Shown here: positions 4,083 to 28,958 of the stretch, piece by piece
Layout: each line of letters starts with the position of its first letter
Numbering within the stretch: the first letter of the stretch is position 1
The notes under the pieces: generated by a model
What the model was told of the DNA's origin: nothing
The model's database searches: none
The model's input: only the letters and a program-made list of their open reading frames with translations
Translations under genes and position numbers: made by a program
From: Stygiobacter electus
GTDB lineage: Bacteria > Bacteroidota > Ignavibacteria > Ignavibacteriales > Melioribacteraceae
Assembly (NCBI RefSeq): GCF_029210465.1
Contig: NZ_JARGDL010000005.1
Coordinates: forward strand, 53,366 to 85,365
Direction: 5' to 3'
Length of the DNA: 32,000 nt

Positions 4083-4142
4083 TGTGTTAATCTGTGAAAT
4101 CTGTGGTAAAAAAACTAACCACAGATAACACAGATTTGCACA
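4083..4142. repeat. Imperfect 25-bp inverted repeat (tgtgttaatctgtgaaatctgtggt / accacagataacacagatttgcaca) with a 10-nt spacer
   Basis: The arms are complementary at 21 of 25 positions by manual alignment. Each arm is itself a tandem array of CACAGAT-type 9-10-mers. Confidence 0.8.
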
Positions 4143-4164
4143 GATCGATTTTATAATTTTTCGG

Positions 4165-4205
4165 GATGTGCAAGCATGCTGGCTAGGCAGGCTTGACCCC
4201 ACATC
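4165..4205. repeat. GC-rich hairpin element (gatgtg-caagc...gcttg-accc-cacatc)
   Basis: It has two nested stems and is visibly GC-richer than its surroundings. The core ggctaggcaggcttg resembles ggcagacaggcttg at 21569-21582 inside the CotH gene. Confidence 0.6.
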
Positions 4206-4366
4206 GTTCATTATAAATTATACATTTTACATTATTAATTAACAACTTGTGTTCTAATGCTAAATCAAAATTTTCTTTTGCAACTTCAGTATTTATTTTA
4301 AATGAATTCTAAATTTTTAATTGAATGCTGTTAAGCACTATTTTTGTATTAACAGTTTATCTTACA

Positions 4367-5974: not shown

Positions 5975-6363
5975 GATTCTTGTCAGGCAATTGATTCGCA
6001 GAAAGCGAGTAGGAAAGTCCGAACACCACAGAGCAGGGTGCCGGGTAACGCCCGGGATTCCGACTATGTTGGAATACGGAAAGTGCCACAGAAAACATAC
6101 CGCTCCGATTTAAATCGGAGTAAGGGTGAAAAGGCGAGGTAAGAGCTCACCGCTTCGATAGTAATATCGTTGGCAGGGCAAACCCCACCTGGTGCAAGGT
6201 CAAGTAGAAAGCATCCATTTATTGGACAAAGTTGCTCGCTTTGATTTCCTTCGGGAATTTGCTTTCGGGTAGACCGCTTGATGCCGATGGTAACATCGGT
6301 ACTAGATAAATAATTGCCGCTCCGTTTTTACGGAGTACAGAATTCGGCTTATAGACAAGAATC
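5975..6363 (+). ncRNA. rnpB: RNase P RNA, bacterial type A
   Basis: Universal blocks are present: gaggaaagtccgaac, gtgccacagaaaacataccgc, gaggtaagagctcaccg and acagaattcggcttatag. The P1 stem is gattcttgtc (5975-5984) paired with gacaagaatc (6354-6363). Confidence 0.93.
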
Positions 6364-6394
6364 TTAAATTTTTCTTCTGCTTCCAAAGGGAAAT

Positions 6395-10129: not shown

Positions 10130-10160
10130 GGGATGTTCAATTGAACATCCCTACTTTTTT
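10130..10160 (+). terminator. Intrinsic terminator downstream of the beta-barrel gene
   Basis: A perfect 22-bp palindrome gggatgttcaattgaacatccc is followed by tactttttt. Confidence 0.8.
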
Positions 10161-10162
10161 GT

Positions 10163-10223
10163 AAAATTTTTCTCAAATATCTTCACTAAAAAGATGTTAT
10201 ATTTAAACAGCATCAAAAAATAT
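10163..10223 (+). repeat. 61-bp direct repeat, copy A (upstream of umuD)
   Basis: aaaatttttctcaaatatcttcactaaaaagatgttatatttaaacagcatcaaaaaatat is identical at 61 of 61 positions to 12092-12152. Confidence 0.95.
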
Positions 10224-10713: not shown

Positions 10714-11973
10714 ATGTTTTCATTAATTGATTGCAATAATTTTTATGCTTCGTGCGAAAGAGTTTTTCGCCCCGATTTAAATGGAAAGCCTGTTGTTGTT
10801 TTGTCCAACAACGATGGCTGTGTAATTGCAAGAAGTAACGAAGCAAAAGCTCTTGGCATTCCAATGGGTGCACCAGCTTTTCAATATGAAGATGTTTTTG
10901 TAAAACATAATGTTCATGTTTTTTCTGCAAACTTTGCTCTTTATGGTGATATGAGTCATCGCGTGATGACTATTTTATCCGAATATTCTCCTGATATCGA
11001 AATTTACAGCATTGACGAAGCCTTCTTAAATCTTGATGGATTAGAACATCTCAACTTACTTGATTATGGAAATAAAATCAGAAAACATGTTTTTAAATGG
11101 ACTGGAATTCCTATCAGTATTGGAATTGCACCAACAAAAGCTTTAGCCAAAGCTGCAAATAGAATTGCAAAAAAATTCTCCGATAAAACCAATGGCGTTT
11201 ATGTACTTGATAATCAAGAAAAAATTACTAAAACACTTAAATGGCTTTCTGTTGAAGATGTTTGGGGAATTGGAAGAAGACATAGCAAAAGATTAAAGGC
11301 AATTGGTGTAAAAACAGCTTACGATTTTATTCAACTTGATGATAATTATGTCAAAAGAAAAATGACAATTGTTGGTCTTCGCTTAAAAAGAGATTTGCAA
11401 GGAATTCCAACAATTCAAATGGAAGATGTTCAACCCAAAAAGAATATTGCAACGACAAGAACATTTGAAACTAATTATAGTGAGTTTGAACAGATTAATG
11501 AACGTGTAATCACTTTTGCAGTTTCGTGTGGTGAAAAGTTAAGAAAACAAAATTCAGCTTGTAATTCATTAATGGTTTTTATTCATACAAATCAACATCG
11601 GGAAGATTTACCGCAATACAGCAGAAACATTGTAGTTAAACTTCCATTTCCAACTAATTCCGGAATTGAACTTGCAAAATTTGCTTCGCAAGCATTAAAA
11701 CAAATTTTTAAGCCCGGTTACTTTTACAAAAAAGCCGGAGTTATAGTAATGGATTTTACACCGGCAGATATTCCTCAATATGATTTGTTTGAAAACAGCG
11801 ATGAACGTCATAAACCATTAATGCAAGCAGTTGATAAAATTAACTCGAGATATGGTCAGCATAAAATTCGTCTTGCGTCGCAAGATCAAAAACGTGTTTG
11901 GAAAATGAAACAGGAAAAACTATCACCACGCTACACAACAAAATTATCTGATATTATAACAATCAATTTATAA
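10714..11973 (+). CDS. umuC: Y-family DNA polymerase, UmuC-like
   Basis: 419 aa. The N-terminus [52 protein letters not shown] is the canonical UmuC block. Confidence 0.9.
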
Positions 11974-12060
11974 TTAATTTGCAATTCGCAACCTGCCTGC
12001 CGTGTAGACGGGTGTATAATATAAAATGTAAGAGTTGAGCTTACTCAACCCAATAAATCT

Positions 12061-12098
12061 ATTAGTGAAAATTAGTGTAATTCGTGTCTGAAAAATTT
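12061..12098. repeat. Dispersed repeat R1, second copy (inverted relative to 3985-4023)
   Basis: attagtgaaaattagtgtaattcgtgtctgaaaaattt is the reverse complement of the 3985-4023 sequence, apart from two indels. Confidence 0.8.
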
Positions 12099-13222
12099 TT
12101 CTCAAATATCTTCACTAAAAAGATGTTATATTTAAACAGCATCAAAAAATATGAGACTGTAAAAATATAATCTTCTTTTCCTTTCCACAGGTGCATTATT
12201 CTTCTGAGTAGTTTCTTTGCTATACGAATAATAGCTTCCTGCTTTTTCATTCTCTTTATTAATTGTCCATACTTCATCGTTAATGCAGGGTCTTTTCTCG
12301 ATGCTATCCAAGCTGATTCTATCAATATATTTCTTAAATATGTGTTCTGTCTTTGTGTTATTCCCAGAACAACTTCTTTCCCTCCTGTTGAATATGTCGA
12401 TGGAGCTAAACCTACATAACTGCTTAGGTGATCATATCCCAAAAATCTTCTTATATCCATTATTTCTGTATATAACGTTACTGCTGTTATAAATCCTATA
12501 CCAGGTACTGTCATTAGTCGTGTTATTATCTTTTGTTTGTCTTCATCCTGATTTATCATTTTTCTTAACATTCTAACAACTTCTGTCATCTGTTCCCTTA
12601 AGGTTTTAAGTTGTCTTAAGTGTTGTTGAAGTGTTTGTTTGACTTCTTCCTGCTGAAAGTTCAAGCTTTCTATGTATTTGATAAACTTTCCGCTCCAGTA
12701 TTTTACTTCTATGTTTTCCGGTAGTTGAACCCCTAAAAAATTCAATAATGATTTTATCCTGTTCTTTACTCTTGTCTGATCTTTTACCAGTTGTATCCTT
12801 AGTCTACTCAATGTCCTTGCTGCTTGCTGTTCCTCTGCTGGAATATATATTCCCTTGAGATTATTACTCGATAGCTCTCTGGCTAATTTTCTTGAGTCTA
12901 TTCTATCGGTTTTACTTGTCTTTTCCTTATTACTTGTTGGTACATCTGCAGGATTAACTACTATATTTTCTATTCCCATTGATTTCAATTGCCTGTCTAT
13001 CCAGTATCCACAATATCCAGCCTCATAGCAACTTTGATACTTCGCTTTCGGATAATTCTTCATTAAATATTTACTTAACTCCTTTGTACTTGGGTTCATA
13101 CTGAATGTTTTGATTTGTTGTCCTCCTGTATTTATTGTTACTGACCACTGCTTCTTATGTACGTCTATTCCAACAAATACTGTTTGGTTTGTAAAATCAA
13201 GTTTGTTATTTTCCTTCTGCAT
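12062..13222 (-). CDS. IS110-family transposase (DEDD N-terminal domain plus Transposase_20-type C-terminal domain)
   Basis: It carries VFVGIDVHKKQW, PGIGFITAVTLYTEIMDIRRF and SYVGLAPSTYSTGGK. Family-like sequence stops around ...LLRRIMHLWKGKEDY. The last ~30 codons read through the 61-bp repeat and repeat R1 before the stop. Confidence 0.88.
   Translation of the reverse strand: MQKENNKLDFTNQTVFVGIDVHKKQWSVTINTGGQQIKTFSMNPSTKELSKYLMKNYPKAKYQSCYEAGYCGYWIDRQLKSMGIENIVVNPADVPTSNKEKTSKTDRIDSRKLARELSSNNLKGIYIPAEEQQAARTLSRLRIQLVKDQTRVKNRIKSLLNFLGVQLPENIEVKYWSGKFIKYIESLNFQQEEVKQTLQQHLRQLKTLREQMTEVVRMLRKMINQDEDKQKIITRLMTVPGIGFITAVTLYTEIMDIRRFLGYDHLSSYVGLAPSTYSTGGKEVVLGITQRQNTYLRNILIESAWIASRKDPALTMKYGQLIKRMKKQEAIIRIAKKLLRRIMHLWKGKEDYIFTVSYFLMLFKYNIFLVKIFEKNFSDTNYTNFH
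12092..12152 (+). repeat. 61-bp direct repeat, copy B (abutting or inside the 3' end of the IS110 ORF)
   Basis: Identical to 10163-10223. On the minus strand it is translated as the tail ...YFLMLFKYNIFLVKIFEKNF of the transposase ORF. Confidence 0.95.
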
Positions 13223-19731: not shown

Positions 19732-21843
19732 ATGAAAAAGTTTTGTTTGCTGTTTTTGTTGCTTTCAATTAACCTTTTTGCTCAAACAAATTTAACTTCA
19801 TCTAATTTACCGATTATAATAATTGATACAAATGGACAAGCCATTCCTGATGAACCCAAAATTACAGCTTCAATGAAAATAATTGATAAAGGAAATGGTG
19901 AAAGAAATTATGTAACAGATCCTGCTAATGTTTATGATGGAAAAATCGGAATTGAAATTCGTGGTCATTCTACTCAAATGTTCCCTAAAAAACAATATGG
20001 AATTGAATTACGTGATAATTCAGGCAATGATATTAATGCGGCAATTTTAGGTTTTCCTGCAGAAAGTGATTTTGTTTTTAATGCAACATACACAGATAAA
20101 TCTCTTTTAAGAAATGTTATTGCATATAAACTTGGAAATGATTTAGGCAGATACGCAACTCGCACAAAATTTTTTGAGTTAATTATTAACAATGATTACA
20201 AAGGAATTTATATTCTTCAAGAAAAAATTAAAAGAGATAAAAACAGAGTTAACATAAAAAAATGTGAAGCGGCAGATACAACAGGTGATGCTGTAACTGG
20301 TGGATATTTAATTAAGATTGATAGAATTGATCCAGGTGATAAATATTTTAATTCTGAATATCCATCAGTTTTTCCAAACACGCCTTCAAAACCATCGCCG
20401 ATTAGTTACATTATTGAATATCCAAAAGCAGAAAATATTCAACCAGCACAATATAATTACATTAAAAATTTCATTAATGATTTTGAAACAACTTTAACAA
20501 AGTCAACTTTCAACGATCCATTTGATGGATATTATAATTTCATTGATATAGATGCATGGGTGGATTATTTTCTTGTGAGTGAATTTACAAAAACAACGGA
20601 TGCTTATCGTTTAAGTGCTTACCTTTATAAAGATAGAAACAGTGTAAATGGAAAATTAATTTTTGGTCCTCTTTGGGATTATGATTTGTCTTTTGGACTT
20701 GCAGATTATGGTGACAGCTGGAAAGAAAATGGCTGGGTCGCACAAAATATTCCAAATGAAGGTATTTGGAATCCACCATTTTGGATAAGAAAAATTTTTA
20801 ATGATCCTGTTTTTTTTAATAAACTTGCTCATCGCTGGCATAAATTAAAACAACAATCTATAAATCCATTTGATCCTGAAAATTTAGTAAAGTTTATTGA
20901 TGCAAATAATCTTTTACTTGCAGAAGCAATAAACAGAAATTTTTCGCGCTGGCCTGAATTGTTTGATCCGAATATTTATATCTGGCCAAACAAAAATAGA
21001 TTTACAAATTACAAAGATGAACTTCTGTATCTAAAAAGTTGGATTGTAAAAAGATTCAATTGGATGAATGCAAATCTTCCGGAAGATTATTCATACATAG
21101 AATGGAAACAACCAGGCAAACGTTGGTTGATTTATCAAATAGGAAATACTACAAAACTTCCACTTTCAATTTTTTATGGTGAAATTAAAAATGTAACTTC
21201 ACTTCAGTTTATTAGCAAAGATCCCAATGTAAATTTTTCTGTTCTTGGTGATTCATTAATAATTTCAGCTTCAAAACTTGGTGAATTTTCTTTTAAGGGT
21301 GTTGTAAAAAAGAATAATGTTGTTGTTTCAATTTCACCAGAGTATAAAATAAATCTTGCAACAAACATTGAAGAAGAAAATAATTTACCTACGCAGTTTG
21401 AATTATATCAAAACTATCCAAATCCATTTTCCGCTAGTAGTGGGAAATCAAGCACGACTATAAAATACACAATACCGTCTGTCATCCTTCGACAGGCTCA
21501 GGATGACAATAGACAGTCCCGACAAAATCGGGATCAGGACGACAATGTCATGGTGAGCCTGCCTGACCGGCAGACAGGCTTGTCGAACCATGACGTCACC
21601 AATCGAAATGTTCAGGATGACAATGTCACTTCGAGTTTATCGAGAAGTGTGCTGCATGTAACACTCAAAGTCTATGATATATTGGGTCGAGAAGTAGCAA
21701 CACTTGTAAACGAATATCAAAAACCGGGAATATATAGTACTGAGTTCAGAGCTCAGAGTTCTGAGTTATCAAGCGGAATTTATTTTTATAAACTTCAGGC
21801 AGGAGAATTCAGTCAGACGAAGAAATTATTGCTGATGAAATAA
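19732..21843 (+). CDS. CotH-family protein with a type-A T9SS C-terminal sorting domain
   Basis: CotH blocks are present: LPIIIIDTNG, KKQYGIELRD and LRNVIAYKLGNDLGRYATRTKFFELIINNDYKGIYILQEKIKRDKNR. The tail reads YQNYPNPF...KYTIPSV[60-codon insert]VTLKVYDILGREVATLVN...GIYFYKLQAGEFSQTKKLLLMK. Confidence 0.88.
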   Translation: MKKFCLLFLLLSINLFAQTNLTSSNLPIIIIDTNGQAIPDEPKITASMKIIDKGNGERNYVTDPANVYDGKIGIEIRGHSTQMFPKKQYGIELRDNSGNDINAAILGFPAESDFVFNATYTDKSLLRNVIAYKLGNDLGRYATRTKFFELIINNDYKGIYILQEKIKRDKNRVNIKKCEAADTTGDAVTGGYLIKIDRIDPGDKYFNSEYPSVFPNTPSKPSPISYIIEYPKAENIQPAQYNYIKNFINDFETTLTKSTFNDPFDGYYNFIDIDAWVDYFLVSEFTKTTDAYRLSAYLYKDRNSVNGKLIFGPLWDYDLSFGLADYGDSWKENGWVAQNIPNEGIWNPPFWIRKIFNDPVFFNKLAHRWHKLKQQSINPFDPENLVKFIDANNLLLAEAINRNFSRWPELFDPNIYIWPNKNRFTNYKDELLYLKSWIVKRFNWMNANLPEDYSYIEWKQPGKRWLIYQIGNTTKLPLSIFYGEIKNVTSLQFISKDPNVNFSVLGDSLIISASKLGEFSFKGVVKKNNVVVSISPEYKINLATNIEEENNLPTQFELYQNYPNPFSASSGKSSTTIKYTIPSVILRQAQDDNRQSRQNRDQDDNVMVSLPDRQTGLSNHDVTNRNVQDDNVTSSLSRSVLHVTLKVYDILGREVATLVNEYQKPGIYSTEFRAQSSELSSGIYFYKLQAGEFSQTKKLLLMK
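21478..21657. repeat. Composite of GC-rich hairpin elements inserted in frame in the CotH T9SS domain
   Basis: Hairpins: gtcatcc/ggatgac (21481-21507); tcccga/tcggga (21517-21533); gtcatgg...ccatgac (21547-21594), which encloses agcctgcctg/cagacaggct; and cacttcgag/cgagaagtg (21628-21649). There are three copies of caggaYgacaatRt. No stop occurs in the gene frame. Confidence 0.85.
21698..21843 (+). repeat. 146-bp direct repeat, copy 1 (3' end of the CotH gene)
   Basis: It matches 22682-22827 at 145 of 146 positions. The single difference (ttt versus ttc) is synonymous. Confidence 0.95.
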
Positions 21844-22324: not shown

Positions 22325-22623
22325 ATAGAAAATAAAAATTTTAAGATAATTTCTTTAACAATGCATCAGTATTTTAAAATTATGATAGTGATTATATAAA
22401 CGAAATGTTCTAACTGTAAAAATAAATTAATGACTCTAAGAAATTATGAACAGTGTCATGGCAATCCCAATGATTTCAGAGAAGTATTTTTGATTTTAAA
22501 ATATCTAATGACTTTCAGGACATCCAATATTATCCTAATTATCCCAAGCCGGTTTCCGCCAGAAGTGGATCCGCCTTTGGCGAAAATCTAACAACGACGA
22601 TAAAATATTCAATACCTATGGGT

Positions 22624-22651
22624 GTAGAGATGTCATATATGACGTCTCTAC
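22624..22651. repeat. 28-bp GTAG...CTAC palindrome (one mismatch) inside the orphan T9SS domain
   Basis: gtagagatgtcatatatgacgtctctac encodes VEMSYMTSL between SIP and QIYD. Confidence 0.9.
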
Positions 22652-22681
22652 AGATTTATGATGTACTTGGAAAAGAAGTTA

Positions 22682-22827
22682 CAACACTTGTAAACGAATA
22701 TCAAAAACCGGGAATATATAGTACTGAGTTCAGAGCTCAGAGTTCTGAGTTATCAAGCGGAATTTATTTCTATAAACTTCAGGCAGGAGAATTCAGTCAG
22801 ACGAAGAAATTATTGCTGATGAAATAA
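22682..22827 (+). repeat. 146-bp direct repeat, copy 2 (3' end of the orphan T9SS domain)
   Basis: See 21698-21843. Confidence 0.95.
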
Positions 22828-22977
22828 TTTTTTTACTGGAACTGTCAAAAAAGATTTTTTAATAAATCACATGATGAAAATTATAAAGTACTTTTTCGAC
22901 AGTTCCAAAATTATGATAAAAATTTTATTGCCAAGCTAATAATTATAATACAGCAAGCAATTTTCAAACTAAACTGA

Positions 22978-26618: not shown

Positions 26619-28958
26619 ATGAAATTCAAACTTTTTACGCTGTTATTTTTATTAATTTCAATTAAACTAATTTCTCAAACAGCGACTCTTCAAACTTCAT
26701 TTAACTTTGTTGATATAAATGGAATTAAAGTACCCATGCAAAATGGAATGCCTTTACCATCATTTGAAAAACAAAATAGCAGAACAATTATTGATTTATC
26801 AGGTGAATGGAAAAAATTTAGATTTGTCTCTGATGATAATCTTACGCTTTCAAACCGAGATGCTAATGTAATTACGGCAATTGAAAATGAATCTGTTGGA
26901 AAGCATCTCCCAAATTATGATGATTCAAATTGGCAAAAGAAAAATTTACCAGCAGTTGAAAACGAAATGAATGCACCAAATGATAACTTTCCAGAATTTT
27001 ATAACGATGGTGTTTGGTATCGTAAAACCTTTAATGTTGATGCTGGTTACTCAAACAAATTTGTTAAACTAATGTTCTATGCTGTTAACTATGTTTGTGA
27101 TGTTTGGATAAATGGAAAATATGTTGGCTATCATGAAGGTGGTTATACACCATTCGCATTTGATGTTTCACAATTTTTAAATTATGGCTCAACAAATACA
27201 ATTGCAATTCGTGTTGATAATATTGCCTGGGGATTAAGGAAAGATATAATTCCTTTTAATAATGTAGATTGGTTCAACTATGCTGGTATTATTCACGATA
27301 TTTATCTTGAAGTTTCCGATAAAACATCTTTAACGAGAGCTAATATCATTCCTAAAGATATTAATGGAAATATCTCTACAACTTTAATTATTAATAATGC
27401 CGATATTGCTAAAAATGTATTTGTGAAAATCAATATTTACGAGGCTTCAATCAATAACAACAATATTAAATCTGAATACGCAAAAGATTTAATTGGAAAA
27501 GAAATTTTGTTCAATGGGACTTCAGAAAAATCAATTCAATTAAATGAAAAAAGTGTTTATACAATTCAGTTTAATAATCAAATCCCAAATCCAAAATTGT
27601 GGACGATGAAAAATCCAAATCTTTATGTAATGAAAGTAACAATTCAAAAAAGTCAAAGTGACCCGACAATAATTGATGAATACTATACACAATTTGGAAT
27701 TAGAACCGTTACAACATCAAAAGGAAAATTTTTACTTAATAATAAAATTATGTTTTTACCTGGAGTTGCTCGGCATGAAGATCATCCAACTTTTGGAAGA
27801 AGTGTTCCGAAAGATGTTATTTATTCAGATTTGCAAGAAGTAAAAAATTTGAATGCACTTTATATAAGAACAGCTCACTATCCAAATCATCTTTATACTT
27901 ATTTAATTGCAGATAGATTAGGATTTGGAATAATGGAAGAAATTCCTGCCTGGCAATGGGATAGTAAAGAAGTTTATGATATTCAAAATGCACGCAAACT
28001 TTACATTCAAATGTTTCGCGAAATGGTATTTAAAGATTTTAATCGTCCATCAATTTTTATGTGGAGTACATCAAACGAAAGTCATTGGAATGGAGTAGAA
28101 CGATTAACTTTTAACAATAACATTAAATCAGATTACCGAACAAACTATGATGATGGAAGATTGCTAACACAATCAGCCGCAGCAGATAATCCAGGTTCAT
28201 CTGACCAATCACAAAATTTATTAGATGTTGCTGGTTGGACAATTTACTTTGGTATATTTTATGGCAAAACTGGTCAATATACTGGTCCAACATATTCATT
28301 TGTTAATTCAGCTCAAACAAATTTTCCTGATAAACCAATTATCGATACAGAATTTGGTTATTGGTCATCTGAAAGTGGATCAACGACAAGTGAACAAGTA
28401 AAAGTCTTTAATGAAACATTTAACGCTTTTAAATTCTTTTTTCCATACGATGCTTTTGGAAATGAAAACGAAAATGGACACTTAATGGGAACAACATGGT
28501 GGTGCATTTATGATTGGTTCCAAAACAAACAAAAAAAGAATGGATGGCAAACAATGGGTTTATTTAGAATGGATAGAATAACAGAAAAACCTGTTGCCGG
28601 AACATTAAGGACTGCTTATTTACCGTATGCAAGTAAAGAAGGAATTCCAGTCAGTGTTGAAAAAAATGTTGATGCTATACCATCAGAATTTGTTTTATAT
28701 CAGAACTACCCAAATCCATTCAATCCAACAACAATAATAAAATATTCGATACCAACGGGTGTAGAGACGTCATATATGACGTCTCTACGGATATATGATA
28801 TCCTTGGAAAAGAAGTTGCAACTCTTGTAAATGAACGCCAACCAGCGGGAAATTATGAAGTAAAATTTGATGGAAGCAATTTATCAAGTGGAGTTTACTT
28901 CTATAAATTGCAAAGCGGTAGTTTTGTTCAAACAAAGAAATTCATTTTGATGAAATAG
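26619..28958 (+). CDS. Glycoside hydrolase family 2 enzyme with a type-A T9SS C-terminal sorting domain
   Basis: It has a GH2 sugar-binding block (WYRKTFNV..., VNGKYVGYHEGGYTPFAFDVS, IAIRVDN) and TIM-barrel blocks (RTAHYPNH, WSTSNESH). The tail reads YQNYPNPFNPTTIIKYSIPTGVETSYMTSLRIYDILGKEVATLVN...GVYFYKLQSGSFVQTKKFILMK. Confidence 0.85.
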   Translation: MKFKLFTLLFLLISIKLISQTATLQTSFNFVDINGIKVPMQNGMPLPSFEKQNSRTIIDLSGEWKKFRFVSDDNLTLSNRDANVITAIENESVGKHLPNYDDSNWQKKNLPAVENEMNAPNDNFPEFYNDGVWYRKTFNVDAGYSNKFVKLMFYAVNYVCDVWINGKYVGYHEGGYTPFAFDVSQFLNYGSTNTIAIRVDNIAWGLRKDIIPFNNVDWFNYAGIIHDIYLEVSDKTSLTRANIIPKDINGNISTTLIINNADIAKNVFVKINIYEASINNNNIKSEYAKDLIGKEILFNGTSEKSIQLNEKSVYTIQFNNQIPNPKLWTMKNPNLYVMKVTIQKSQSDPTIIDEYYTQFGIRTVTTSKGKFLLNNKIMFLPGVARHEDHPTFGRSVPKDVIYSDLQEVKNLNALYIRTAHYPNHLYTYLIADRLGFGIMEEIPAWQWDSKEVYDIQNARKLYIQMFREMVFKDFNRPSIFMWSTSNESHWNGVERLTFNNNIKSDYRTNYDDGRLLTQSAAADNPGSSDQSQNLLDVAGWTIYFGIFYGKTGQYTGPTYSFVNSAQTNFPDKPIIDTEFGYWSSESGSTTSEQVKVFNETFNAFKFFFPYDAFGNENENGHLMGTTWWCIYDWFQNKQKKNGWQTMGLFRMDRITEKPVAGTLRTAYLPYASKEGIPVSVEKNVDAIPSEFVLYQNYPNPFNPTTIIKYSIPTGVETSYMTSLRIYDILGKEVATLVNERQPAGNYEVKFDGSNLSSGVYFYKLQSGSFVQTKKFILMK
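28761..28788. repeat. Perfect 28-bp GTAG...CTAC palindrome inside the GH2 T9SS domain
   Basis: gtagagacgtcatatatgacgtctctac equals its own reverse complement. It encodes VETSYMTSL between SIPTG and RIYD. The antisense tracked ORF 28720..28935 carries the same peptide. Confidence 0.95.

Follow-up and report, generated by a model that had tools for sequence, protein, structure and literature searches.

A stack of hairpin repeats lies in frame in a loop of the type IX sorting domain of a CotH-family protein in Stygiobacter electus

Introduction

How can a secretion signal come to hold sixty extra codons, and are these codons there for the protein, for the nucleic acid or for neither? The question is raised by a stretch of 32,000 nucleotides (nt) from Stygiobacter electus (contig NZ_JARGDL010000005.1, positions 53,366 to 85,365), hereafter the window, in which a CotH-family gene ends in a type IX secretion system (T9SS) sorting domain of type A. 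Between the strands TTIKYTIP and VTLKVYD of this domain the gene carries a 180-nt in-frame insert built of DNA hairpins. The type-A tail, or C-terminal domain (CTD), is a seven-strand sandwich that is cut off by PorU after export, and in one tested case its last 22 amino acids (aa) were enough for the secretion of green fluorescent protein (PMC10202324).

An initial annotation of this DNA regarded the block as intergenic-type palindromes stacked within a coding loop, and left the choice between an unusually permissive loop and a role at the RNA or DNA level. The analysis described here supports the first part of that description. The 180 nt are probably selfish or neutral repeat DNA, akin to repetitive extragenic palindromes (REP) and Rickettsia palindromic elements (RPE), which occupies a permissive loop of a cleaved-off domain and would have spread mainly by gene conversion, been enlarged locally and been filtered for reading frame.

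Results

The insert is composed of five hairpin units

The window is AT-rich, with 30.4% GC overall, and the insert has a GC content of 0.50 (window, 0.304), in agreement with the initial annotation. As single-stranded DNA the insert region folded better than its shuffles (z = -3.65). The sequence TCAGGAYGACAAT, reported before as present three times, was found at 21498, 21534 and 21612, and the three repeats are the 3′ arms of three A-oriented units together with the spacer. As had also been claimed, neither a stop nor a frameshift is introduced: the coding frame is the only stop-free frame of the insert, the other five containing one to five stops.

The repeated unit has the consensus GTCA-nnnn-GAGCYTGTCGA-nnnn-TGAC, which spans 27 nt and forms an 8-bp stem (GTCA and four free pairs) closed by an 11-nt loop; the coding strand may carry this loop in either orientation, A or B. 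Among the five units of the insert (Table 1) one is intact, one is truncated at its 5′ side, two contain a nested mini-hairpin and two are degenerate. Unit 1 follows the family pattern exactly, gave a covariance-model match of 47.7 bits (E = 3.7e-10) and folded with z = -3.05. The mini-hairpin of unit 2 (z = -2.83) recurs inside a complete unit of another tail of a sister strain (contig L244). Unit 3 (inverted repeats I6 and I7) folded with z = -4.12 and produced split, weak model matches at 21547-67 and 21578-86. Unit 4 is 80% identical to unit 1, has three mismatches to the 19-mer and has lost its fold (z = +0.83). Unit 5 (z = -3.20) aligns with an intact B unit in the orthologue L001; the sister strain has a perfect stem here (GAAGTGAC), which in the window is broken by the differences at 21650-21651. 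The hairpins described initially are therefore present, with one of them decayed.

Table 1. Coordinates of the insert, its units and other features of the window.
Feature	Position	Strand	Description
CotH-family gene with C-terminal T9SS type-A sorting domain	19732-21843	+	open reading frame (ORF) of 703 aa; host of the insert
CotH sorting domain (CTD), insert included	21394-21843	+	149-aa tail; predicted seven-strand beta-sandwich round a disordered loop
Remnant of a second palindromic insert, earlier loop of the CotH tail	21430-21453	+	codes SASSGKSS in place of the NP(S/T) of most tails
In-frame insert	21478-21657	+	180 nt = 60 codons (SVILRQ...SVLH); five GTCA-type hairpin units with AAT spacers
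Unit 1	21481-21507	+	orientation A, intact: GTCATCCT-TCGACAGGCTC-AGGATGAC; codes VILRQAQDD
Unit 2	21511-21543	+	orientation A, without 5′ stem arm; 17-nt mini-hairpin TCCCGACAAAATCGGGA (21517-21533) nested in the loop
Unit 3	21547-21594	+	orientation B: GTCATGGT-GAGC[...]TTGTCGA-ACCATGAC; divided by nested 21-nt hairpin CTGCCTGACCGGCAGACAGGC (21559-21579)
Unit 4	21595-21621	+	orientation A, degenerate: GTCACCAA-TCGAAATGTTC-AGGATGAC
Unit 5	21625-21651	+	orientation B, degenerate: GTCACTTC-GAGTTTATCGA-GAAGTGTG
Orphan T9SS tail	22495-22830	+	no cargo domain, no start codon, stops upstream; Por_Secre_tail 33.3 bits
Patch replaced between near-identical strains	22619-22749	+	L003 counterpart 10895-11061; ~130-170 nt
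28-nt palindrome, orphan-tail loop	22624-22651	+	GTAGAGATGTCATATATGACGTCTCTAC; fold z = -6.28
Perfect 28-nt palindrome, loop of the GH2-protein tail (26619-28958)	28761-28788	+	GTAGAGACGTCATATATGACGTCTCTAC; codes VETSYMTSL
IS110-family transposase gene	12062-13222	-	adjoins umuD/umuC-like pair
RNase P RNA, class A, bacterial	5975-6367	+	293.8 bits

AAT spacers separate units 1 and 2, 2 and 3, and 4 and 5, while units 3 and 4 abut. All pieces have lengths that are multiples of three (27, 33, 48, 27 and 27 nt, with 3-nt spacers), and a 27-nt unit with its AAT spacer thus makes a 30-nt module of ten codons. The conserved TGAC end yields a TGA in frame 3, and frame 2 meets a TGA in orientation B when the last base of the stem is T, as is usual. 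The frame read GTC-A.. is the only one reliably stop-free in both orientations, and it is the frame used in the CotH insert and in two tail copies from other genomes. The window and the sister strain L003 differ at four positions of the insert, one in the loop of a mini-hairpin and three in stems, none of them compensatory; together with the lost fold of unit 4, this pattern is consistent with decay of the CotH units.

The unit belongs to a hairpin family found in many phyla

A scan with the unit pattern, using one genome per species, identified at least 151 copies in at least 120 loci; the taxa and counts in this section are those among the matches listed. These lie in Bacteroidota (including Hymenobacter isolates), Ignavibacteria, Calditrichaceae, Eremiobacterota/Vulcanimicrobiota, Nitrospinota, Chloroflexota, Acidoferrum, Peribacteria, Babeliales and Rickettsiales, in loci of 31% to 72% GC. 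In loci below 0.45 GC, 54 of 64 copies fall in stop-to-stop ORFs shorter than 100 codons, and are therefore intergenic, while two fall in ORFs of at least 200 codons. The sequences flanking 155 copies are unconserved apart from a T at position -1 (~60%), and the 27-nt unit is accordingly a discrete one.

The four free stem pairs are Watson-Crick in 93-98% of cases and occur as 27 different inner stems. All four covary, to a degree that column shuffles and register shifts came nowhere near. Neighbouring copies within 120 nt are inverted in ten cases and direct in three. Inverted A-AAT-B doublets occur in tails of L003 and L244, and L001 has an A-spacer-B doublet with a 9-nt spacer. Two cross-genome copies (L078 and L087) are themselves in T9SS tails, in the position, frame and orientation of unit 1, with the sequences YSIPNVILRQAQGDNF-TTLKVYD and YSIPSVTLRQAQSDNW-VTLKVYD.

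An acidobacterial intergenic array (L044, 6500-7020) contains three successive units 91 nt apart, with intact GTCA units next to tandem 5′-truncated 3′-half units (GACAGGCTCAGGATGAC with AAT or ACT). This is the architecture of CotH units 1 and 2, in a distant phylum.

Within the window the family was detected in the insert alone: the covariance model gave one strong match in the 32 kb (21481-21507) and nothing significant outside the insert. The proposal that sub-units of the block recur in the intergenic DNA of the window was therefore not borne out. The 19-21-mers had no match there at up to three mismatches, the sites cited (11992, 4181 and ~29300) share only 6-8-mers with the insert, two of the five matches to CCTGCCTG are QAG codons in tails, and the segments 11985-12020 and 29295-29330 fold no better than shuffles. 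The idea that intergenic-type palindromes have been stacked inside a coding loop holds at the level of the family.

Several other identities for the block were considered. A known structured RNA was rejected: Rfam gave no credible match to the insert with E values allowed up to 10, and none to the intergenic array, P11 and AaHKsRNA41 fell far under their gathering scores, and the window searched at the gathering threshold returned RNase P alone. No tRNA or tmRNA was detected in the window. A protein search with the 60-aa insert alone retrieved three word-sharing candidates, none of which scored, and neither the DNA core nor the encoded peptides were found in the searched literature. An intein, an intron or a programmed frameshift was set aside on sequence grounds, namely one continuous frame, 27-nt repeat units and orthologous sites that are shorter or empty. 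An assembly or adaptor artefact was also rejected, the stack recurring in an independent assembly with four substitutions; the 27 different inner stems and the presence of the family in isolate genomes such as Hymenobacter further counter it.

Orthologous sites are empty, intermediate or full

Three syntenic orthologues, each with a GH16 gene directly upstream, were compared together with their DNA. L002 (76% aa identity) has an empty site, KYTIPGLSDNLF-VSLKIYD (IPGLSDNLF-VSLKIYD), as the check proposed in the initial annotation had called for. L001 (75% identity) is longer by 24 codons, in which an intact A unit (stem TGGT/ACCA) is joined through a 9-nt spacer to an intact B unit (stem TCCC/GGGA). 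L003, from a strain with 98.75% nucleotide identity over 17 kb, has the complete five-unit stack with the four substitutions, and the CotH ORF is intact in both strains. Across the parsable CotH orthologues the loop has its canonical 7 residues in 85 of 101 and is expanded in 16, which makes the insert lineage-specific. By this comparison the insert is older than the split between the window and L003 strains, and has apparently grown from a doublet-like state.

These sites bear on the view that the 60 residues are adaptive, a polar, charged and flexible linker selected for its amino-acid properties. Q, R, D, N and S indeed abound in the peptide, for which disorder is predicted. However, its sequence is dictated by the DNA palindromes, whose two orientations give unrelated peptides (RQAQ and SLSK) that both occur in tails; close tails differ in loop length, between 7 and 69 aa; and the insert is missing from close orthologues. 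A selected linker is thus extremely unlikely. What was observed is the opposite of a peptide conserved without pairing in the DNA, and since no orthologue was seen to keep the 60 residues without hairpin potential, the main idea of the initial annotation stands.

The sorting domain is predicted to fold round the insert

The host protein is a clear member of its family, with a full-length match to the CotH profile PF08757 (192.2 bits, 2.1e-56, profile positions 1-322 of 322). A protein database search found homologues in the thousands, and the syntenic orthologues carry the name CotH. By eye, the N-terminal sequence MKKFCLLFLLLSINLFAQ resembles a signal peptide and is a putative export signal. 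The tail passed the cut-offs of both sorting-domain profiles, with 29.4 bits against 27 for Por_Secre_tail (PF18962, residues 637-700) and 29.9 bits against 23 for TIGR04183 (residues 633-700), as expected from the earlier assignment of a T9SS tail. Both alignments begin only after the insert, and the N-terminal profile positions have therefore been split off by the insertion.

An AlphaFold2 model of the tail, built from an alignment of 73 related tails, predicted the seven-strand Ig-like beta-sandwich that a T9SS type-A CTD requires (strands at tail residues 3-7, 20-27, 87-94, 100-109, 112-119, 128-136 and 139-147). The per-residue confidence score (pLDDT) was 88-95 for most of the sandwich flanking the insert. 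For tail residues 28-86, which correspond to the insert, it was 50-58, with almost no secondary structure except a 4-residue helix at 34-37; this predicted disorder fits the permissive first loop suggested in the initial annotation. A Foldseek comparison of the model with the PDB matched the solved T9SS CTDs 8glk_D and 8qb1 only weakly (E ~1e-2), because of the disordered insert.

It could be argued that the insert has disabled the sorting domain, CotH being no longer exported or on its way to a pseudogene, with a tail that was already useless. The profiles match after the insert only, with scores barely over the cut-offs; a cargo-less orphan tail lies 650 nt downstream; and about 40% of the CTD surface is buried in, and must fit, the SprA/PorV binding pocket, which has been called plastic (PMC10994853). 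Against this, the ORF is intact in two strains, and the whole gene has a pN/pS of 0.011/0.057 (~0.19) between the window and L003. In the tail 3′ of the insert there are no non-synonymous and three synonymous changes. The CotH gene is, on these counts, under purifying selection between the two strains. With a high-confidence sandwich predicted round the loop, and loops of 52-69 aa in other tails, loss of the sorting function is very unlikely.

The same loop is a recurrent home of hairpins

All three T9SS tails of the window (CotH, orphan and GH2) have a palindrome in the same loop. The two 28-nt palindromes of the orphan and GH2 tails, GTAGAGAYGTCATATATGACGTCTCTAC, start with GTAG and end with CTAC. 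Their centre (GTCATA/TATGAC) resembles the stem of a GTCA unit minus its loop, and the type was found solely within T9SS tails in the ~1.6 Mb of loci examined. In the sister strain, four tails on another contig comprise two with a 7-residue loop and two with an A-AAT-B doublet, and loop hairpins were present in five of the seven sister-strain tails examined.

To place these tails in a wider context, two samples were used. In the first, 117 parsable tails of a metagenome sample selected by the motif QNYPNPFNP alone, the loop has 7 residues in 96 (82%) and 11-26 residues in 15 (13%). The DNA of the long loops folded better than that of matched controls (mean z = -1.64 vs +0.20; Wilcoxon p = 3e-4). 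The loop before SGxYFY was expanded in only 3 of 108 tails. The second sample consisted of the 120 database tails most similar to the CotH tail, with varied cargos, of which 101 had parsable loops; here 85 of 101 loops are expanded, with 13-17 residues commonest and a maximum of 69. The premise that few residues are the norm at this point is thus correct for the 82-84% of tails with the 7-residue loop and fails for the nearest tails, where loops of 13-17 aa dominate.

Several hairpin families contribute to these loops, with encoded peptides that include VTLRQAQSD, VIPSLSRDE, VIASEAKQSQ, VTLSGVEGSR, VISTEGRNL, VETRHASSLQ and SSPLAKGR. A tandem triplication is present in database entry P0121 and a nested form in P0171 (nested peptide VETRQLARQLTGGASLQH). 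The CotH loop itself measures 67 residues (IPS, the insert and LH) compared with the canonical 7. Since loop hairpins recur across the sampled tails, the CotH insert is the long end of a length distribution rather than a one-off.

Other loops of the tail also contain such sequences. The remnant at 21430-21453 aligns with a fuller copy in the orphan tail, TCCGCCAGAAGTGGATCCGCCTTTGGCGA, in an alignment of six tails. The place of this remnant, between NPF and TTIKY, is a third insertion site, at which CotH keeps half a palindrome: the orphan tail has there a palindrome centred on GGATCC (22555-22583), which codes SARSGSAFGE, and the peptides SAKGGSASGG and SAGGGSAFGG recur at this site in other tails. 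In the loop before SGxYFY, hairpin-like peptides (for example VETRHGSSL and ARHLERSREI) were seen in the CotH orthologues P0006, P0007, P0009, P0018 and P0020, with an insert of ~30 residues in P0018.

Four database entries, P0143, P0136, P0141 and P0174, are 'proteins' of ~81-111 aa that start at a Met inside the peptide of a loop hairpin, P0143 being the CotH tail of L001. The inserts thus appear to cause split or spurious gene calls.

Tails exchange segments together with their hairpins

The orphan tail stands 650 nt downstream of CotH, after CotH and a cupredoxin gene, and a second cargo-less tail is present in the sister genome on another contig (L244:6001-6300). The last ~150 nt of the orphan tail in the window (from ~22674) are nearly identical to the CotH tail. 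Comparison with L003 revealed that 22619-22749 is the sole break in 17 kb of 98.75% identity, with both flanks common to the two strains. In the window this patch has the GTAG palindrome and, behind it, sequence with ~97% identity to the CotH tail. In L003 it consists of an A-AAT-B GTCA doublet followed by sequence like that of the GH2 tail, and it is ~93-95% identical in DNA, hairpins included, to two tails on the L244 contig of the same genome. The strain-level patch and the shared tracts indicate that the tails are mosaics produced by recent recombination between paralogues, in which loop hairpins move with the segments.

The mosaic tails give circumstantial support to the earlier idea of a recombination hot spot, one form of the view that the hairpin is useful as nucleic acid, by pausing ribosomes ahead of the sorting domain, by blocking an exonuclease or by acting in DNA as a hot spot for tail exchange; the 60 codons would then be an overgrown case. 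The replaced patch has its left edge exactly at the loop, right after KYSIP, and the tails are mosaic. Several unrelated hairpins fill this loop in most tails of the nearest subfamily, expanded loops fold significantly better than controls and stem covariation is strong across the family. Nevertheless, 82-84% of type-A tails lack a hairpin, including most CotH orthologues and the syntenic L002, and the CotH units decay without compensation. Among the matches listed, the units are overwhelmingly intergenic and occur in phyla without a known T9SS. Moreover, GTCA units are found in tails in both orientations (19 A-type and 13 B-type), a finding that speaks against an RNA signal tied to one strand. 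A nucleic-acid role of this kind is conceivable but unlikely.

A second possibility is active targeting, in which an enzyme of the REP-associated tyrosine transposase (RAYT) or IS200-like kind, or a palindrome-targeting IS110-type enzyme, would insert hairpins site-specifically and repeatedly, first at a tail sequence and then into resident hairpins. Recurrence at the loop would in that case stem from independent insertions and not from gene conversion. Nesting is found exactly at the apical loops of units 2 and 3 and in L244 tail 2, and P0171 has a nested peptide. The inverted doublets resemble REPINs (paired, inverted REPs), the L078 and L087 copies reproduce the position, frame and orientation of unit 1, and the window encodes an IS110-family transposase. 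On the other hand, the window has 29 ORFs of 100 aa or longer, and a Pfam scan of 26 of them found no Y1 transposase that could be a cognate RAYT. The flanks of the 155 listed copies contain no conserved target beyond the T at -1, and the CotH site has no target-site duplication at the insert borders relative to the empty orthologue, features that also separate the insert from a miniature inverted-repeat transposable element (MITE). Conversion is the simpler explanation for the near-identical hairpin-plus-strand segments that three tails of one genome share. Site-specific insertion is accordingly rather improbable.

Other repeats and RNA genes in the window

A 64-nt stretch from the 3′ end of the IS110 gene (12089-12152) is repeated with 98% identity in intergenic DNA ~1.9 kb away (10160-10223). 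The alignment between the window and L003 begins inside the IS110 element, whose 3′ end abuts the 11992 site cited in the initial annotation. At 4120-4214, in an intergenic gap, a short tandem-like motif, cacagataacacagatttgcacagatcg, precedes a GC-rich stretch and is probably another small repeat family. The RNase P RNA gene forms the other large GC-rich island of the window.

Discussion

Taken together, these results favour a model in which the CotH insert is selfish or neutral repeat DNA tolerated in a sorting-domain loop. The loop is predicted to be disordered, it belongs to the N-terminal part of the domain and the domain is cut off after export, so that an insert would be tolerated as long as it is in frame and free of stops. 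An ancestral A-spacer-B doublet would have entered the loop, a state that may persist in L001, as well as in further sister-strain tails. Gene conversion or segment exchange would then have carried loop inserts from tail to tail among the many paralogues of a genome. The stack may have grown by duplication of whole units, as 30-nt modules, and of 5′-truncated ones, and further small hairpins may have inserted into the exposed apical loops of resident units. The units would now be decaying through uncompensated point mutation, and throughout only in-frame, stop-free arrangements would have survived. We infer neutrality, the order of these events and the leading part of gene conversion in the spread.

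Several observations weigh against this model. Stem covariation across phyla is the pattern expected of a functional structured element, and the model has to assume that it arises from hairpin-templated correction of palindromes. Several hairpin families share one loop, namely GTCA units, the GTAG palindrome and those coding for VIASEAKQS, VTLSGVEGSR, VISTEGRNL and SSPLAKGR; this preference exceeds random insertion followed by a filter, and some targeting or benefit may therefore exist, with the proviso that loop occupancy is expressed per sampled tail and not relative to intergenic density. No mobilising enzyme was found in the Pfam scan of 26 of the 29 window ORFs of at least 100 aa. The convergence of unrelated hairpin families on one loop and the perfect stems across phyla are not fully explained. 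In view of this convergence and the upkeep of the stems, a nucleic-acid function and active targeting keep some probability, and both are compatible with the selfish-repeat model.

In a broader version of the functional view, the GTCA hairpin and its relatives with GAGC...CGA loops would be a functional element of single-stranded DNA or RNA whose partner is conserved from phylum to phylum. In Ignavibacteria and related bacteria its occurrence in the first long loop of T9SS tails would have been exploited, either as a hot spot for recombination that shuffles tail segments between cargo genes or as a signal on the mRNA by which export is coupled to translation of the tail. We regard this as doubtful.

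Selfish palindromes that lie in frame are known from Rickettsia and a few other bacteria, and the phenomenon as such is therefore not novel. What appears to be new is that one loop of the abundant T9SS type-A signal recurrently hosts hairpins, in about one tail in seven generally and in most tails of the nearest subfamily. The family of the unit, whose 11-nt loop is conserved and whose stem covaries freely in many phyla, likewise appears to be new, with no significant match in Rfam or in the searched literature. The inserts have practical consequences. They weaken matches to sorting-domain profiles, CotH losing the N-terminal part of the profile and scoring barely above the cut-offs, and mosaic tails can mislead both orthology and assembly. 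The loops, ranging from 7 to ~70 residues, also constitute a natural experiment on how far a secretion signal tolerates stretching, and they raise the question of what copies and maintains the hairpin across phyla.

With regard to known systems, the CotH tail resembles the T9SS type-A CTD in passing both cut-offs (TIGR04183 and PF18962) and in its predicted seven-strand sandwich, and differs in having a loop of 67 residues where 7 are canonical. Nucleotide hairpins in CTD loops, or a link between the T9SS and REP or MITE sequences, were not found in the searched literature. The pilS/pilE system is an example of gene conversion among paralogous cassettes. The tails are like it in that short-tract exchange yields mosaics and that a cargo-less, 'silent' tail lies beside expressed genes. 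They differ in that nothing points to programmed or selected variation, and since the exchanged domain is removed after secretion, an antigenic rationale is not apparent.

The unit shares several features with REPs and REPINs. The 27-nt unit falls in their 20-40 bp size class, and its copies, at least 151, are mostly intergenic among the matches listed. Inverted dimers, clusters, complementary stem changes between subfamilies and occasional in-frame clusters are shared as well. In contrast to REPs, the GTCA and TGAC ends of the unit pair with each other, there is no GTAG or CGTC tag and the loop is 11 nt, whereas REP loops are mostly 2-5 nt (4-5 nt in CGTC families). Membership of the CGTC type, with degeneration of CGTC to TGTC taken into account, was rejected on the long loop and the paired tag. 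The GTCA unit is thus REP-like in behaviour yet outside the GTAG and CGTC super-families; the 28-nt palindromes at 22624 and 28761, for their part, do start with GTAG.

The closest precedent for the in-frame insertion is provided by the RPE, which Ogata et al. reportedly described in 2000. To our knowledge, the RPE-1 type is confined to Rickettsia. In both systems intergenic palindromes also occur in frame within genes, adding a peptide while the protein is kept, and are interpreted as selfish DNA at permissive surface sites; the CotH locus, with an in-frame gene insertion, an empty orthologous site (L002) and an intermediate (L001), corresponds to an RPE-type case. RPE-4 and RPE-6 are CGTC-type REPs, RPE-1 is a longer palindromic insertion, and clusters of intragenic GTAG or CGTC REPs that code for 43-82 aa have been interpreted as insertions into flexible loops (PMC3733652). 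In-frame palindromic repeats were therefore already described, and the initial annotation was mistaken in considering them a feature class without a description. The published intragenic REP cases concern diverse proteins, many of them in DNA repair, and a T9SS-tail hot spot is not among them (PMC3733652). GTCA units have no CGTC tag and are of another length, and RPE descriptions set them apart. The units at the CotH locus are 27 nt long, stacked and nested, they belong to a family found in many phyla, and they occupy one loop of one domain family where RPEs occupy unrelated proteins.

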